NCBI GenBank assembly: GCA_034226945.1
Contig: CP120456.1
Location: 496,001-560,000, forward strand
Origin: Picochlorum sp. SENEW3
Lineage: Eukaryota
DNA: 64,000 nt
Direction of reading: 5' to 3'
Below, one piece after another: positions 3 to 63,543 of this stretch. Positions within the stretch are counted from its first letter, which is position 1, and each line of letters opens with the position of its first letter. The notes beneath the pieces were generated by a model. The model saw only the letters and a list, made by a program, of their open reading frames with translations, did no database searches and was not told the origin of the DNA. The translations under genes were made by a program, and so were the position numbers.

Positions 3-608
3 CTCCCAGATTCTGTGCAAGTTGAATACAGTGATGGATCTTCCACGGTGTGGCAATTTTTATTCTATCCTGGAAAGGACGCCAACGGTCAAGAGTTTGT
101 TGATTACAGTGTGGATGAGCTGATTGCATACGCCAATGCTGAGCCAGAGAATAGCCCCTATACATTATTCAACGATGCCCTCTTGCAGTTTCAGGGAGGC
201 TATATTGGAGGAGCTTCACAATACAACACAATGCTCTACGGTGATATTGGCATTCTTGTATTCCTTCGAGATTTTTACGCGACTATACTCGCTCTTGGAG
301 GACCCGAGATCCCCAGTGACATATTCGAGACTGTGACTGAGTTTGTTGATGCCACTGACAAGTACATTCCGACTGTTCCGGAACCACCCATTGGTGCAAC
401 GAATGGATTTTACGGATGGACATTTACCGTATATTCTGTCATGTCTAGAATTACGGGGTTCAAGAGCATTCCCATGGAGTACTTTGAGGTACCTCCCACA
501 CATTACATTCCTTTCTGGCCTGATTGGGCCAAGGCTGGGTTTGGAACAAACCAATACAACAGTACAGAGCTTGCACAAATATACACTCAAGTCTCAAAAG
601 GAGTATAA
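3..608 (+). CDS. 3' part of an uncharacterised protein, truncated by the window edge
   Basis: Frame is open from the window start to TAA at 606-608. Composition looks globular. No recognisable family. Confidence 0.6.
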   Translation, partial: LPDSVQVEYSDGSSTVWQFLFYPGKDANGQEFVDYSVDELIAYANAEPENSPYTLFNDALLQFQGGYIGGASQYNTMLYGDIGILVFLRDFYATILALGGPEIPSDIFETVTEFVDATDKYIPTVPEPPIGATNGFYGWTFTVYSVMSRITGFKSIPMEYFEVPPTHYIPFWPDWAKAGFGTNQYNSTELAQIYTQVSKGV

Positions 609-1015: not shown

Positions 1016-1128
1016 GGATGGATCCATCCGTCCGGACGGATCCGTATATATCCGGATATATCCTCGATCGAGCCTCGCGCGAGGCCCCTGTCAATTGGCA
1101 GACGCTGATCAGCGGTGGTCATGACCAC
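1016..1128. repeat. Chain of overlapping perfect palindromes upstream of the GH13-GT5 gene
   Basis: GGATGGATCCATCC (1016), ATCCGTCCGGACGGAT (1026), ACGGATCCGT (1036), ATATATCCGGATATAT (1046), GGATATATCC (1054), CTCGATCGAG (1063), GCCTCGCGCGAGGC (1072), CGCTGATCAGCG (1103), GTGGTCATGACCAC (1115). Confidence 0.95.
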
Positions 1129-1365
1129 ATCCCGTAAAATCTGTGTAACCAATGAGCCCATTCAACAGCCATGTATTCTGAATTGATATAGTACATTGTA
1201 TTTGATGCAGTAGAAATCGAAACCTAAAACAGTAGTCGTAGTCGTCGTTGAACCGAGTCCTTATTGGACGACTGTGGTGCTCCCAAGGGTCTCGAGCATA
1301 TTTCAGTAGGTATAATAAACAACAATATGCAAGATAGTATTGACCTTTCTGTAGATAAACGAAGT

Positions 1366-8223: not shown

Positions 8224-11200
8224 TCATGGTGGTGGTAATGGTACAGTTGCGTATGGAGATGGAGATGCTAAGGATGGAGTATTGGAAGGGCATGTTCCCC
8301 ATTGTGGTTGGATGCACGTATCATTCTCAAACGCTGCCCCAAGGTCAAATCTCTCAGGCTTGCTCGCTATCTTTGTCACGCACCAGTTTGAGATGTCTTG
8401 ATTGAATAGAGTGGCGTCGTCAAACATGGAGTCCATGCTCGTCACAAGTCCAGTATCCCACTTTGAGCCAGATCTGGCTAATGGCTGGTTCCCATTGTTG
8501 AACTGAAAAGCGCTGAAAAACATTCGATCCATCGTCGTTACTGAAGACGTGTCCCAAGAACTTATGTCCTGATCAAATGAGGTGGCGTAGCCAAACATCA
8601 ACCCCATATCAGTCACTGCAGATGTGTCCCATACCCCAATCGGCTGATTGAAGGCAAACGCTGCTGCAAACATCCCGGAGGTATCATTGACTGATGACAT
8701 GACCCAGCTGGAAATATCCTGATTGAAGGAGTCGGCAAAAAAAAACATGCCTGACATGCTTTTCACATTTGCTGTGTTCCAAGAGCTTAGATCGCCATTG
8801 AAAGCACTTGGTGGACTAAATGTACCAGAGAACATTCCCGCCATCGAAGTCACTTGCAATGTATCCCATCCATTCAGGTCCTGATTGAACGCAAGAGCTC
8901 TGCTGAACATGCTTGACATATCCTTCACTGATCCAGTTTGCCATGAACTGATGTCTCTGTTGAATACAAGAGCCTCTTGAAACATGCCACTCATGTCTTC
9001 AACTGCAGCTGTGTTCCATGTATTGATAGGTTGATCAAAGGCTTCTGCTTCTTTAAGCATTTTTTTCATTGACGTTACTTTGCTTGTATCCCATACGGGT
9101 CCAGATGTGGCCAGAGGTTTGTTGAAGACAGAAGCCCCTTCAAGCATGCTACCCATATCAGTGACTTTGCTTGTATCGAATCTGATTTCCTGATTGAAAG
9201 CTTTTGCATTGTTGAACATGTACTTCATATTTGTCACAGAACCAGTATTCCATCCAGATGTGGATGTTGCAAGCGGCTGGCCACCATTATTGAACACTGC
9301 TGCTTCTCCAAACATTTCACGCATTGATATTACTGAACTTGTATCCCATGACCCGATGTCCTGGTCGAACGATTCTGCTCCGAAGAACATGCCGGCCATG
9401 TTTTGTACTTGACTGGTGTTCCAGTTTCCAACCGGCACATTGAAGGCAGATGCAACACCAAACATGTCAAACATGGTTGTTACAGAGGATGTGTCCCAAC
9501 TTGATCCAACTGTTTCCATGGGTTGTCCACCATTATTAAACGCATACGCTTCGTAGAACATGGTGTTCATGTTTTGTACCGATGCTGTATTCCACTTGCT
9601 GATGTCCTGGTTAAAAGAAGCTGCCCCTACAAACATCTCCTCCATGGTTGTCACAGAAGCAGTATTCCATTCACCGATGGGTTGGTTGAAATCACTGACA
9701 AACTGAGGCGCATCTCCCAAGTATCCTTGAAACATTCCCTTCATTGTTGTGACCGATCCTGTGTCCCATGTAGCAATATTTTCATTGAAGGTCTCGAGAT
9801 CAGCAAAGAGATTAGACATGTCAGTTATTCCAGATGTGCAAGTTGTTGGTAGTTGACTCCACGTTGTAGAATCTGCTACCAAAGCTCTCAGTTGACTTTC
9901 GGATCGTTTTGTGTACAAGATCCCACCGACCCAACCAGAAGAACCGATGGGTGCTCGAGGGCAGAGGACAGTCACTTGGTTGGGACCTAGATAGAAAACT
10001 GGTGCAGGAACTGGAACTGGAATTGGCTGAGGAGATGGCTGAGGAGAAGGAAGTGGAGATATTTGTGGCAGTGGCTGGGGAGAAGGCTGAGGAGAAGGTT
10101 CAGGCTCTGGGGCAGGCTCTGGGGCATCTGGTACAGGTATTGGTTTGGAAGTCTCGAGCACGTCCTCCACCAAAACATTCTCTCCAAGAACCTGTGACGT
10201 TGACTCTCCTGGTCCCGTGAGAAAGTCTGTCAACGTATTTGCCGCCAAATTCGCACTGTCAAGTTGATTAGTGTCATCAACAGCAAAAACTACTTGCAAA
10301 AAAGCTCTAATTGTAGGATTGACTCCTCCCTGCCTGTTGACGACAGGAATTACCCTGGCAACTGTACAAGACGTCAGAGAAGGATCATATCCTGAAATCA
10401 TCACCAGGTCCTTACAAAGCTGCTCCCTCTTTTCCTGGCCAAACGACTGAACTGTTTCATTGGCAATACCAAGCCTGACCTCCACCTCAGGGACCTCCAC
10501 CAGAGTTGAATTCGGAGGAACCAAGTCGTATCGTCTCAAAAACTTCCATCTAGTCGCCGTATTGATAGTGGGAAAGTATCCACCTTCGCCCTCCACCAGC
10601 ACAGGTTGACTCTGACAGTTTTTCACTGCCAAAACATGACGACAGATTTCTGGTTTGTTTGCTGCAGTCACCTCAAAAGTAGAAGTACTGCTGTCGCCTC
10701 CATCCTTGACCTTCCACATTTGGGGACTATCCACACCAGCAACCTGTGAGGAGTTCAGAAACAAATCACCAGCATATGATGAAACAAGACACGTGCCCTT
10801 GTATGACGGGTTCTCATAAAAGTTGCTGATAAACCCAAGACAACGCGTGTATTCTGCATAGTCGGGAGGAATAAAAGCTTGCAATGAAATTCTCTTCTCA
10901 TTGTCACCGTCCTCCACCCTCAACAACCATTCACGCCACATCATGGAAGCACTCTGACCTGTCCTCATCACTGGACCAGCAGTTTTTGCCATTGATACCG
11001 CCTCCGAGCAACTTCGATTGTTAAACCCCAGAAACTCTGCGGCATAATGATATACCAATCTTTCAGTGATACAGAAACAACAACCATTGCCACCAATGCA
11101 CGCAGGACGCACCTCGACCAAGGTCACATTCGGGCCTGACCGAGGCCAACTCAATCGAGTACACTCCGTCACGGACATCTCGTAACGAGTCCACCCGGCT

Positions 11201-12644: not shown

Positions 12645-12958
12645 TTGAGAATTAAGTATTGTAAATGTGTTGGTAAGAGGTTTTTAATTGGGGTTTCTGG
12701 TGGAGTCACACTCTCGAGACCTATCAGGCCAGCGCTGGCAAAGTTTTAATAACTAAAGTAAGGAATTCCTTACTTAAACATAAAGTGCATACATATTCAT
12801 TGAGTGATAAGAACCATCGCAGATGGGTTGAACTTGTATAGAAATATTACTACTGTTGAACGAAGAATAGAAAAACCTGGACGGTTGTCGCATCTGGGCG
12901 CGGTTAGAGGGCGTTTGTCGGAAGGGAAGAGAGAACGAATCAAACCAACCTTGGTACA

Positions 12959-37303: not shown

Positions 37304-37611
37304 GTCTAACAGACGTACTTCATACTGAGCTTGCACAAGATCAATTGCACTTGGCAATCTTGCATGAAAAACCTATGATATACATCGGCGTTCAACTCCC
37401 ATACACTGGCGATATGTGCTGGAAGGCCCATGTGTCTGAAGATGTCGAAGTCATCATTTCCCAATCCAGAGGGAACTGATTCCTTCTCAACTGATTCATG
37501 AGGTGATGGATGGTTGCAAAGCACGGTACGAATTAATTCGTACTATATATATATGAGTAGAACAATGTGTGTGTGATACGTTGATATCTATGGCTTCAGT
37601 TATACATGAAC

Positions 37612-51221: not shown

Positions 51222-51271
51222 TGATGTACATCACATGCATGTGATCGATCACATATGTGATCCAAATTGGA
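51222..51271. repeat. Interlocking palindrome chain (alternately inverted ATCACAT units)
   Basis: TGATGTACATCA (51222), ATCACATGCATGTGAT (51230), ATGTGATCGATCACAT (51239), GATCACATATGTGATC (51247). Confidence 0.95.
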
Positions 51272-52490: not shown

Positions 52491-52985
52491 TTATTGTCGA
52501 AATACATCTGGTATATCAGCCCAGGTATACCCTTCGACACCCTTGTACGCGTAATACGCAATCCGAGAAACATACACCCCCGGAATAAGAACCAATATCC
52601 CACACACCCACACACCAATCAAAGCAGACATCCCCTCTGTCTGCCATAACACCAACCCTGCAATCAGCATGGACACACCCAAAAGCATGAGTCCTATCGC
52701 AGAGAGCACAGGAGCCCTTGCCGATGCAGGAATCCTGGTGGTGTACCATGACCACCACCTCGAGGTGGTGGTTCCATCATCATCAGGCATTGTCATCTCT
52801 CTTCTCACAGGAGTCGTCCCATTCAGGTATCTATTCTTTTTTACAGTGGTATTCCGGCGTACTATAGTGTCTGAAAGAGTCGAGGACCTCCAGTCACTCT
52901 GAAACGCCTTCTCTTCGTTTGTGTCTTCTCGGGTCGTATTCTTCTTCTCTTCCTCTTGTTGTTGATCAGGTATGAATGCTGACAT
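52491..52985 (-). CDS. TMEM230: TMEM230/UPF0414-like small membrane protein
   Basis: Two TM helices followed by LIPGVY..RIAYYAYKGVEGY...DIPD. Confidence 0.8.
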   Translation of the reverse strand: MSAFIPDQQQEEEKKNTTREDTNEEKAFQSDWRSSTLSDTIVRRNTTVKKNRYLNGTTPVRREMTMPDDDGTTTSRWWSWYTTRIPASARAPVLSAIGLMLLGVSMLIAGLVLWQTEGMSALIGVWVCGILVLIPGVYVSRIAYYAYKGVEGYTWADIPDVFRQ

Positions 52986-53366
52986 GGGTCAACAAAATGT
53001 CATAATACTAGTAAAATTTTTTTATAGTAGTGTCGGGATAGTGAATATATTACCAAGCCTACACCTTGACGTCTCTGCATGGTCATATGACCATCCCAAA
53101 GGGATGATCATCACGATGAACCAAGGCTTGCAATATATATTGGTTATATTATTACACAAACTCTTAAGGGTTTGATGCATCTATGCTAGGTTCTGGAGCT
53201 CCATCCATGACATTTTTTTTTTAATCAGCAATTGCTCAGGGCCCATACCCTTCTTCAAGGGCTTCTTCACGGTCCATTCTGTTTTTGTTGTGCCAAGAAC
53301 AAACTTTTCTTTCTGATTCATCCTGTGCAGTTTGCAGATTGGTAATGTTCAACTATACTACTACTA

Positions 53367-53957: not shown

Positions 53958-54387
53958 CTCATTGCTACCTTACCTTTGGTACATTTTTTTCCTGTTTACA
54001 TCGGATAGGGATCGATGAACATTGAAACAAACAAATGTGTTTACGAGTTTATGTACATGGTCTGCACATCATGTGCATTGTTGCAATTAGTAATACCACT
54101 CAGTTGACGATGCGCGTATTTCTTTCTTGACATCCGACAGTTCTAAAGTTTAAAAAAAGCTCATGTTCCTCTCCAAAACTGCATCGCATATATAAGCGAA
54201 GGGTGAGACACTTTGATTTCTCAAAAAAGGCATCTACCCAATGGGCGTCCGCGCCCAGTACTGGGCCAGATCTGGCATCTAGATGCAATCCAATTGCATC
54301 TATACTGCCTTGCATATAAATATAGTACTTGTATATACATTATATCGATGGTTGAGTCATGTCTGATACGGATAGAAACACATAGAC

Positions 54388-62945: not shown

Positions 62946-63289
62946 CAGATCGATCTGACCGGATATCCGGATATGTCCGTACACACGTGTGTATGGTGTC
63001 CGTAGCGCTGGCGCCATGCATGGCCTATCCATATGGATCGATCGCGATCGCGATCTCCAGATGCAGAGATCGGATGGACCGTCATGTGGAGTCAACATTG
63101 TGGACCGCCCATAGCAGTAGTGCGCACCAAATCATAGCGCCATGGCACAGTGATCTATAGCATGTACAACTGTATACATATACTACAGTATATGTACTGC
63201 CACTCGTGGCGATACCGTTATCGCCATATCGATCGATGTACATGATACAGTATGCCTATATATCTCCACATTTTGGATCGGACATGTCC
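62946..63289. repeat. Palindrome-dense divergent promoter region
   Basis: CAGATCGATCTG, CCGGATATCCGG, ATATCCGGATAT, TACACACGTGTGTA, GCCATGCATGGC, ATCCATATGGAT, GATCGCGATCGCGATC, TACATATACT-ac-AGTATATGTA, TGGCGATA-ccgt-TATCGCCA, ATCGATCGAT, GGACATGTCC. Confidence 0.93.
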
Positions 63290-63543
63290 AAGTTCCTAAA
63301 CTTGTCAAGTTTGCAGGGAGGATGACAATATTGTCACATGACATTAATGTCGACGGTCTGCCGTTCTAGAACGTTCACTCGATGGAGTGAACTCTTCGAT
63401 CGGAGAATTCGGCCGTGGCCGACGTTCTTCCATGCATCAACGGAGCATGCCCATATCCTGATAAACACGTGAGGCATGCGCCTCACCTGCACAATATAAT
63501 TCAGTTTTTTTCTTTGAAAACTTACTACAAACAAATTAACAAA

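Follow-up and report, generated by a model that had tools for sequence, protein, structure and literature searches.

Clustered zero-spacer palindromes of arbitrary sequence in the intergenic spacers of Picochlorum: a chain of nine units and its possible origin in short template switches

Template switching and quasi-palindrome correction (Ripley; four-point models) are described as sources of mirror-templated multi-base changes, palindrome elongation, inverted triplications with short duplications and mutational hot spots, features that the palindromes presented here may share. In the accessible part of this literature, palindrome elongation by template switching is documented for yeast deleted for rad27 (PMC5677150), and palindrome correction and elongation by the same route are reported for human variation and mutation clusters (bioRxiv 10.1101/2021.11.26.470150). 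The known events are, as far as the available text goes, rare, often involve longer looped repeats and arose de novo in yeast only in the mutant (PMC5677150), whereas in Picochlorum the spacers of the wild type are dominated by the inferred products, which have no loop between arms of 5–8 bp and are tiled. Such events are seldom met, and knowledge of them was deduced largely from human data or from yeast mutants. For Saccharomyces cerevisiae the accessible text reports perfect inverted repeats above random expectation that cluster in intergenic DNA, are near random in coding DNA, as in Picochlorum, and were judged unlikely to extrude as cruciforms (PMC2908449; PMC6420913). The yeast repeats are AT-rich (71.7% versus 61.7% for the genome), depend little on the length of the spacer and reach their highest density in convergent regions in the available portion of these studies, whereas those of Picochlorum have no GC bias, show a sharp preference for zero spacer and have their lowest enrichment in convergent spacers; with this and a mean GC content of 0.42 (0.58 for the chain) they also differ from the yeast-type poly(A)-associated, nucleosome-excluding class, which is AT-rich and most frequent at 3' ends and in convergent spacers. 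The trait differs from the known AT-rich inverted-repeat pattern.

A survey of 118,019 genomes found that eukaryotic repeats favor zero spacer and an intergenic position, as seen here, yet in its available text the arms are at least 10 bp long, the eukaryotic zero-spacer repeats are disproportionately AT-rich and introns lie above exons, whereas the palindromes described here have arms of 5–8 bp, are GC-neutral and show no excess in introns (PMC13155455). Its main text mentions no Picochlorum, algae or chlorophytes, with genome tables that may list the genus, and its short supplementary file holds none of four algal names. Synthesis-dependent microhomology-mediated end joining and polymerase theta are described to leave short templated inverted copies, small indels and microhomology of a kind also met here (PMC5728401, PMC2943611). 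Herpesvirus origins resemble the locus in their statistically dense clusters of short palindromes. These clusters mark few conserved sites, whereas those of Picochlorum are many, sequence-unrelated and labile. No description of the trait was found among the listed literature matches for the genus combined with palindromes or inverted repeats, in a search that covered few subscription papers; the phrase overlapping palindromes occurs in none of the literature matches listed, and the word stem is absent from the main text of the P. costavermella genome paper (PMC6141220).

The window, i.e., the whole stretch of 64,000 bp that was analysed, comprises positions 496001–560000 of contig C4 in a genome of 13.85 Mb and 14 contigs (twelve of 0.77–1.58 Mb and two of 37.6 and 74.1 kb). 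Of four of its proteins that were compared, three belong to 90% clusters that include named Picochlorum proteins. Palindromes are present in this genome as a genome-wide, GC-neutral, zero-spacer and clustered trait well beyond chance. At a probability of roughly 0.6 we regard the chain at 1016–1128 and the genome-wide palindromes as near-neutral scars of repeated short template switches, which extended pre-existing palindromes of 4–8 bp. With equal confidence, the chain would lie at the far end of what palindrome birth and decay, acting in intergenic spacers throughout the genome and for the most part neutral, can produce. A wild-type alga of 14 Mb, whose spacers contain about ten times the expected number of perfect 16-bp palindromes, could allow the rate, the tract length and the targeting of such events to be measured. 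Mutation-accumulation lines were published for the same group, and such lines of five green algae were reanalysed (bioRxiv 10.1101/2022.02.09.479524, accessible part); together with several sequenced relatives this could make the alga suited for the study of copying errors.

A direct scan of 1016–1128 yields exactly nine perfect zero-spacer palindromes of at least 10 bp, with lengths of 10–16 bp, as the first-pass annotation had described them (Table 1). The nine units cover 96 of the 113 bp, in agreement with its statement that almost every base belongs to a palindrome. The further statement that the right arm of one palindrome often serves as the left arm of the next holds in part: three of the eight junctions share 4–8 bp, two share 1 bp, two abut exactly and one is a gap of 17 bp, i.e., arm sharing is found at a minority of the junctions. 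The units differ in sequence and form no tandem repeat, as had been noted, with only a degenerate direct repeat of 3 x 13 nt found in the chain. A dispersed repeat, a MITE or a microsatellite was rejected on the lack of a second genomic copy and of a repeating unit beyond this degenerate one; a DNA search of the own genome with 900–1300, which skipped very common words, returned a single match and no further copy. An Rfam search of 500–1500 gave no match at E values up to 1. The same spacer contains two inverted pairs of no assigned family that are probably due to chance, one of 11 perfect bp (791–801/1277–1287, 475 bp apart) and one of 15 bp with 87% identity (848–862/890–904).

Table 1. Features of the window. 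X22 is one of the relatives compared; strand is given for genes and the leader.
Feature	Position	Strand	Remarks
Upstream same-strand gene, 3' part	3–608	+	no Pfam match
Palindrome 1, 14 bp	1016–1029		16 bp in X22 through one base at 1015
Palindrome 2, 16 bp	1026–1041		4 bp in common with unit 1; one mismatch in X22 (1036)
Palindrome 3, 10 bp	1036–1045		centre is the last two bases of unit 2
One-mismatch palindrome, 18 bp	1040–1057		bridges units 3 and 4; likely relic
Palindrome 4, 16 bp	1046–1061		adjoins unit 3; mostly absent from X22
Palindrome 5, 10 bp	1054–1063		its central 6 bp form the terminal part of unit 4
Palindrome 6, 10 bp	1063–1072		
Palindrome 7, 14 bp	1072–1085		X22 has a gap at the three outermost bases of the left arm
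Tenth unit, 14 bp, palindromic except for one mismatched pair	1088–1101		fills the sole 17-bp gap of the chain
Palindrome 8, 12 bp	1103–1114		
Palindrome 9, 14 bp	1115–1128		adjoins unit 8
Putative proximal promoter/5' leader	1125–1326	+	alignable in 4/4 relatives, including two without chain alignment
ORF, 1629 aa	1327–6216	+	alpha-amylase domain, glycogen-synthase-like glycosyltransferase domain, hydrophobic C-terminal part
Four interlocked palindromes	51222–51262		in the last two, a unit of 8 bp is triplicated in inverted order (X-X'-X)
Three palindromes with 2-bp overlaps	54253–54302		with a hairpin of 10-bp arms
Second nine-palindrome cluster	62946–63055		other sequence; 83 bp covered

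The chain was picked by eye, which favors chance as an explanation. In 20,000 dinucleotide shuffles of the 113 bp the mean number of palindromes is 0.35 and the maximum, reached once, is five, compared to nine in the real sequence, and none of 60 Markov-simulated windows of 64 kb (orders 1, 2, 3 and 5; 15 each) contains a 113-bp stretch with more than four. The question was extended to a sample of 974 kb that includes each of the 12 chromosomes and amounts to about 7% of the nuclear genome (C4 contributes 454 kb), which was annotated with a custom coding model and an intron finder without RNA support. Its 568 spacers (238,311 bp; palindromes of dinucleotide repeats removed) hold 274 palindromes of at least 12 bp versus 70 in dinucleotide shuffles, and 60 versus 6.0 of at least 16 bp, placing the density in the sampled spacers far above its shuffled control. 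An order-5 Markov model predicts 89 and 5.6, respectively, and the excess stays when the spacers of the window itself are left out (235 versus 59 and 50 versus 4.2). Slippage of palindromic microsatellites would have in its favor that self-complementary tandem units of four and six bases are enriched (97 versus 52 and 12 versus 1.8); only 14 of 214 palindromes are internally periodic. Regarding a fold-back artefact of the assembly, a single contig of X22, i.e., of a different organism, covers the whole stretch and can be aligned through the chain, from which it differs locally, and all 213 sampled words of 600–2600 are present in three short-read contig sets, which possibly derive from the source sample and are not independent. 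Chance, slippage and assembly artefact, to which we give a next to vanishing probability, are already refuted by the controls and the orthologous contig.

The excess is concentrated on perfect symmetry without a loop. In 593 non-coding segments of the first 784 kb, arms of at least 6 bp occur 214 times versus 50 expected at loop 0 (4.3-fold), whereas loops of 1–4 bases are enriched about 2-fold (101/53, 81/42, 75/37 and 71/39), and arms of at least 8 bp at loop 0 are found 48 times versus 1.7; mirror repeats are not enriched in these segments. The chance of extending an arm by a further pair increases from 0.24 to about 0.5 at arms of 5–7 and then goes down to 0.31 at 8. These values bear on the suggestion of the first-pass annotation that the chain might act as a structural promoter code by cruciform extrusion. 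Single-strand DNA folding of the chain gives a z of −1.25 and is reached by 24 of 200 shuffles, i.e., it is no better than shuffled sequence, and the arms measure 5–8 bp. As looped hairpins would extrude as well, their enrichment of about 2-fold leaves a function as cruciform or as a promoter code of this kind unsupported, and the chain itself is indel-rich or unalignable in relatives.

No motif underlies the palindromes: the 274 contain 248 distinct 12-base cores, all 16 four-base cores are in use, and their mean GC content equals 0.42 in a background of 0.43. An array of sites for several dimeric transcription factors would suit the upstream position of the chain and the commonest 8-base core, which presumably resembles the RY motif. 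This core accounts for 9 of the 214 palindromes, and the diversity of the 12-base cores, a symmetry that extends to 16 bp and beyond, cores that track the background frequencies of words and the lack of conservation make such an array highly improbable. To interpret palindromes in these promoters as factor sites would first require a test. The central dinucleotide of the 274 palindromes agrees with how often seeds pre-exist (p 0.89) and not with the frequency of single bases (p 0.016), a match that selection on chance extensions would produce as well and that gives no discrimination on four-base cores (p 0.09) or at lengths of at least 14 bp (p 0.22). Fold enrichment shows no rise with the GC content of the 6-bp core (3.8, 4.0, 3.0 and 5). 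A GC effect of whole palindromes (11-fold for GC-rich ones versus 3.7-fold) was dropped as support for an annealing step because the GC content of the core had no effect. Furthermore, palindrome density does not correlate with GC3 (rho 0.14, p 0.36, 44 bins), and samples of organelle DNA show little excess (22 versus 14, 9 versus 9 and 15 versus 9; single shuffles).

Within the nuclear sample the location of the palindromes is uneven. At lengths of at least 12 bp, divergent spacers hold 126 versus 27 expected, tandem spacers 139 versus 33 and convergent spacers 24 versus 9.5, the latter being least enriched (2.5-fold versus 4.3–4.7-fold for the others). In tandem pairs the density peaks 40–120 bp after stops, and a further peak lies 160–280 bp before the ATG; it is raised over 0–120 bp after stops and low over the last 120 bp before the ATG, all of these being small counts. 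Coding DNA (400 segments) exceeds synonymous shuffles 1.1–1.7-fold at loop 0, and because loops 1 and 3 are likewise enriched this excess is not specific. The 109 predicted introns contain one palindrome of at least 12 bp versus 4.2 expected and, after trimming, seven versus 11.5 of at least 10 bp; at the fold enrichment of spacers they would hold 15 (P 5e-6). Tandem duplications of four bases are enriched in introns (50 versus 35.8) and spacers (1035 versus 737) alike. To account for the difference of introns and spacers, either mutagenesis that acts locally or selection for symmetry as such is needed. Double inversion was considered as a source of tandem duplications of even length, but the side prediction that these alone are enriched did not hold, since odd units are enriched as well (unit 7: 21 versus 8.7). 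The predicted introns of the sample are short, with a median of about 75 nt, have GTATGT/GTACGT as donors and TGCAG as acceptors and seldom show a canonical branch word.

The chain is the densest palindrome cluster of the sample, and eight more stretches beyond the two of nine units contain five to seven palindromes, one of them being a microsatellite. Clusters of at least three units occur 43 times in the 974 kb with sizes that form a smooth tail and not a separate class. In the first 784 kb, 71 neighbours lie at most 20 bp apart versus 21 expected, and exact abutment is the most frequent arrangement (gap 0: 11 pairs, versus about three per bp at gaps of 1–10). No palindrome of at least 10 bp is present in 288 of the 568 spacers, and 34 carry at least three within 113 bp. 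Density also differs between broad chromosomal domains (chi2 119, df 43): C4 shows mostly 2–3.5 palindromes per non-coding kb at 416–576 kb (except for 20-kb bins of 0.5 and 1.7), the other chromosomes 0.4–1.6. A self-BLAST of the sample returned 26 paralogous pairs with non-coding parts, none of them over a cluster. As separate observations, 416–576 kb of C4 appears as a domain of about 160 kb with about twice the usual density, next to 0–1.3 per kb at 596–690 kb; further groups or single palindromes of 18–22 bp lie at 63228–63392, 53079–53142, 37526–37554, 12756–12775 and 52751–52772 of the window; and C4 1100–1120 kb (L113–L114) is rich in repeats, with a near-perfect inverted pair of 362 bp about 1 kb apart and several dispersed repeats.

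Such clusters might mark replication origins, either as signals or as by-products of initiation, as had also been proposed from the first reading. The 43 clusters in 974 kb are of the order of the origin density of yeast, and the intergenic position and the width of 50–110 bp would fit. Since the clusters share no motif, the chain is GC-rich (58%), the cluster sizes have a smooth tail and the sites are not conserved, this explanation is very improbable, and for the chain itself neither a role as origin nor as cruciform has support.

The process that would most simply account for the zero spacer, the neglect of sequence and the use of existing seeds is probably a brief switch of a nascent 3' end between strands. 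Having copied a chance palindrome of 4–8 bp and then stalled, the 3' end would leave its template and anneal to the identical word of the opposite strand, with which it can pair over the full length of the word and without a bubble. The switched end would then copy 1–5 bases backwards and return, and each event would lengthen the palindrome by overwriting or by insertion. The bias for zero spacer might follow from the pairing, because a contiguous palindrome gives twice the pairing of a looped repeat with an equal arm. Repetition of the event within a hot zone of 50–110 bp would reuse earlier arms as template and as seed, thereby producing interlocked units, X-X'-X triplications and imperfect direct repeats. 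The hot zones might be open chromatin that extends from the 3' end of one gene to the next core promoter, and/or the products might be purged from coding DNA, introns and core promoters.

The decay of the palindromes is in agreement with this process being near neutral. Relics with one mismatch, counted per inner pair, amount to 0.03–0.39 of the perfect excess; the pooled value of 0.21 falls within the range of eight neutral toy simulations treated with the same estimator (0.08–0.24), and a neutral birth–decay steady state derived here predicts about 0.17 for seven pairs. As relics are as common as neutral decay predicts, perfection is not visibly guarded. A uniform toy model of seed-primed switching matched the length spectrum (1.09 versus 1.15 per kb at lengths of at least 12 bp) but not the clustering. 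The toy models gave 0.01–0.08 near pairs per palindrome versus 0.16 in the real sequence, with none of 15 settings matching clustering or packing, and gaps of −3 to 0 bp numbered 3–12 versus 30 real in the seven settings where they were counted. Strong local hot zones came near to the tail of cluster sizes, while none of seven settings gave more than half of the near pairs or the peak at abutment, and packing was not reproduced by hot-spot, burst and feedback simulations. Iterative template switching, as proposed in the first-pass annotation, is therefore retained as the best-supported origin, but it does not explain the introns without an excess and the end-to-end packing. The introns, in which tandem duplications are enriched, count against it because a replication error acting everywhere predicts otherwise. 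The independence of core GC counts against it as well, as an annealing step might predict a rise with GC.

Both gaps might be accounted for by selection of a sequence-independent symmetry code, in which palindromes in the spacer from a terminator to the next promoter are kept for nucleosome positioning, for insulation of tightly packed genes or for a symmetry-reading protein while the individual words turn over freely. In favor of a selected role, the excess is restricted to intergenic DNA, with none in predicted introns. The density maxima after stops and before the ATG (small counts), the packing that neutral toy models do not reproduce and the longer palindromes that X22 has elsewhere in the same spacer point in the same direction. 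Against it stand relics as frequent as in neutral simulations, the 288 spacers without any palindrome next to the 34 with three or more in 113 bp, the folding and the 2-fold enrichment of looped hairpins, the variation in broad chromosomal domains, and a chain that is indel-rich or unalignable in relatives while 1125–1326 aligns, so that we consider such a code unlikely. In a wider form, Picochlorum might write or keep perfect palindromes of arbitrary sequence in its untranscribed intergenic gaps, tiled and with introns spared, which is doubtful. This could take the form either of a symmetry-only boundary code of a compact genome or of a spacer-targeted synthesis of tandem palindromes.

The relatives compared are four of 24 sequence runs (X22, X11, X5 and X23), and the differences given are those listed, next to 40 more substitution rows and 22 more indel rows. 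The X22 contig differs across the stretch by 49 letters and 123 gap letters and lacks, judged by depth, 20 of the 37 bp at 1042–1078, 17 of them in four listed gaps; an 8-bp gap begins in the right arm of palindrome 3, and a 3-bp gap at 1072 removes the outer arm of unit 7 (listed differences, unpolarised). X11 carries a 6-bp insertion behind 1073, inside palindrome 7, and an allele without 11 bp from 1099, including the left arm of palindrome 8, with flanking direct repeats of 3 bp. X5 and X23 align from 1125 onward and are unaligned over 714–1124. Lacking cover there is no proof alone, and the evidence used is that their contigs run on 5' of 1125 with unlike sequence (141 and 14 letters). 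Alignment of the orthologous promoters thus retains the proximal part in all four relatives, while the chain is indel-rich in two and unalignable in two: since X5 and X23 align from 1125 but differ upstream, the chain is subject to turnover and the proximal 200 bp are retained. An insertion of the chain as a whole, suggested by a loose end of X5 at 1125 weakly like 998–1026, was dropped as an explanation because it depends on a match of six bases. A metagenome scan for the orthologous promoter found one contig of 1.9 kb (L094, 86% identity) that does not include the chain and stops about 120 bp upstream of the match, and a scan of viral contigs found nothing.

Adjacent doublets make up seven among the 31 listed X22 differences, and two of the seven complete a zero-spacer palindrome in X22, while five do not. 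The doublet 634–635 extends a palindrome from 10 to 14 bp (634–647), and the doublet 1131–1132 completes an 8-bp palindrome around 1133; the test yields P 0.018 for the allele of the relative only and 0.10 for either allele, on listed and unpolarised differences. The state at 1131–1132 is common to all four relatives, so that a loss in the lineage of the window is more likely. Of the 31 listed differences, 17 belong to adjacent doublets or a triplet (624–635, 876–886, 1151–1172), which suggests frequent multi-base mutation or effects of the alignment near indels.

The indels of 3–11 bp that crowd the chain, one of them bounded by 3-bp microhomology, would also fit scars of double-strand-break repair at break-prone open chromatin with several switches per event, arising from templated insertions of the polymerase-theta type (synthesis-dependent end joining) or from the fill-in of hairpin ends that were opened off-centre. 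Breaks in promoter spacers would explain the hot zones and the absence from introns. The genome encodes two family-A polymerase loci (one a frame of 1469 aa; a candidate polymerase theta) and two matches of the Spo11/TopoVIA type. Snap-back priming implies looped repeats, unlike the zero-spacer repeats found here, and looped forms, which it should favor, are weakly enriched. The central dinucleotides disfavor an origin from hairpin tips: hairpin opening of the P-nucleotide or hAT-footprint kind, in which a single arbitrary base would set the centre without a seed, is rejected on them at p 0.016 for lengths of at least 12 bp, but neither at lengths of at least 14 bp (p 0.22) nor on four-base cores (p 0.09). 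Burst simulations did not produce the packing either, and break repair appears quite unlikely as the source. Ku (two matches), Sae2 (one locus), two ATP-dependent ligases and four matches of the XPG/FEN1 family are present as well. Among the repair genes searched (Ku, Sae2, ligases, family-A polymerases, Spo11-type and XPG/FEN1) no loss was found, and because these genes are present no missing repair pathway explains the trait.

The chain lies in a same-strand spacer of 718 bp, 408 bp 3' of the stop at 608 and 199–311 bp 5' of the ATG at 1327. The reading frame that follows may, from its domain architecture, encode an alpha-1,3-glucan synthase (Ags1/Mok1)-like protein. The position upstream of this gene, given in the first-pass annotation, holds, but the link is incidental because the trait is genome-wide and a second cluster of nine units lies at 62946–63055. 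For the first domain of the encoded protein the best solved relatives are fungal-type alpha-amylases, and the combination of amylase, glycogen-synthase-like domain and hydrophobic C-terminus in a green alga is possibly that of a relative of alpha-1,3-glucan synthases. Further downstream, 8224–11178 on the minus strand encodes a DUF285 repeat protein with a Pro-Glu/Ser-Pro linker, of a family named from bacteria. In the spacer of the chain, about 30 bp of 676–713 are missing in the X22 orthologue, and the core 17-mer of this segment occurs at 33 genomic places with at most one mismatch (control 0). Its copies share a common 3' end, a TGTAA word followed by a TAAT-type tail, and vary in their 5' extent, by which they resemble the truncated 3' end of a putatively retroposed element.
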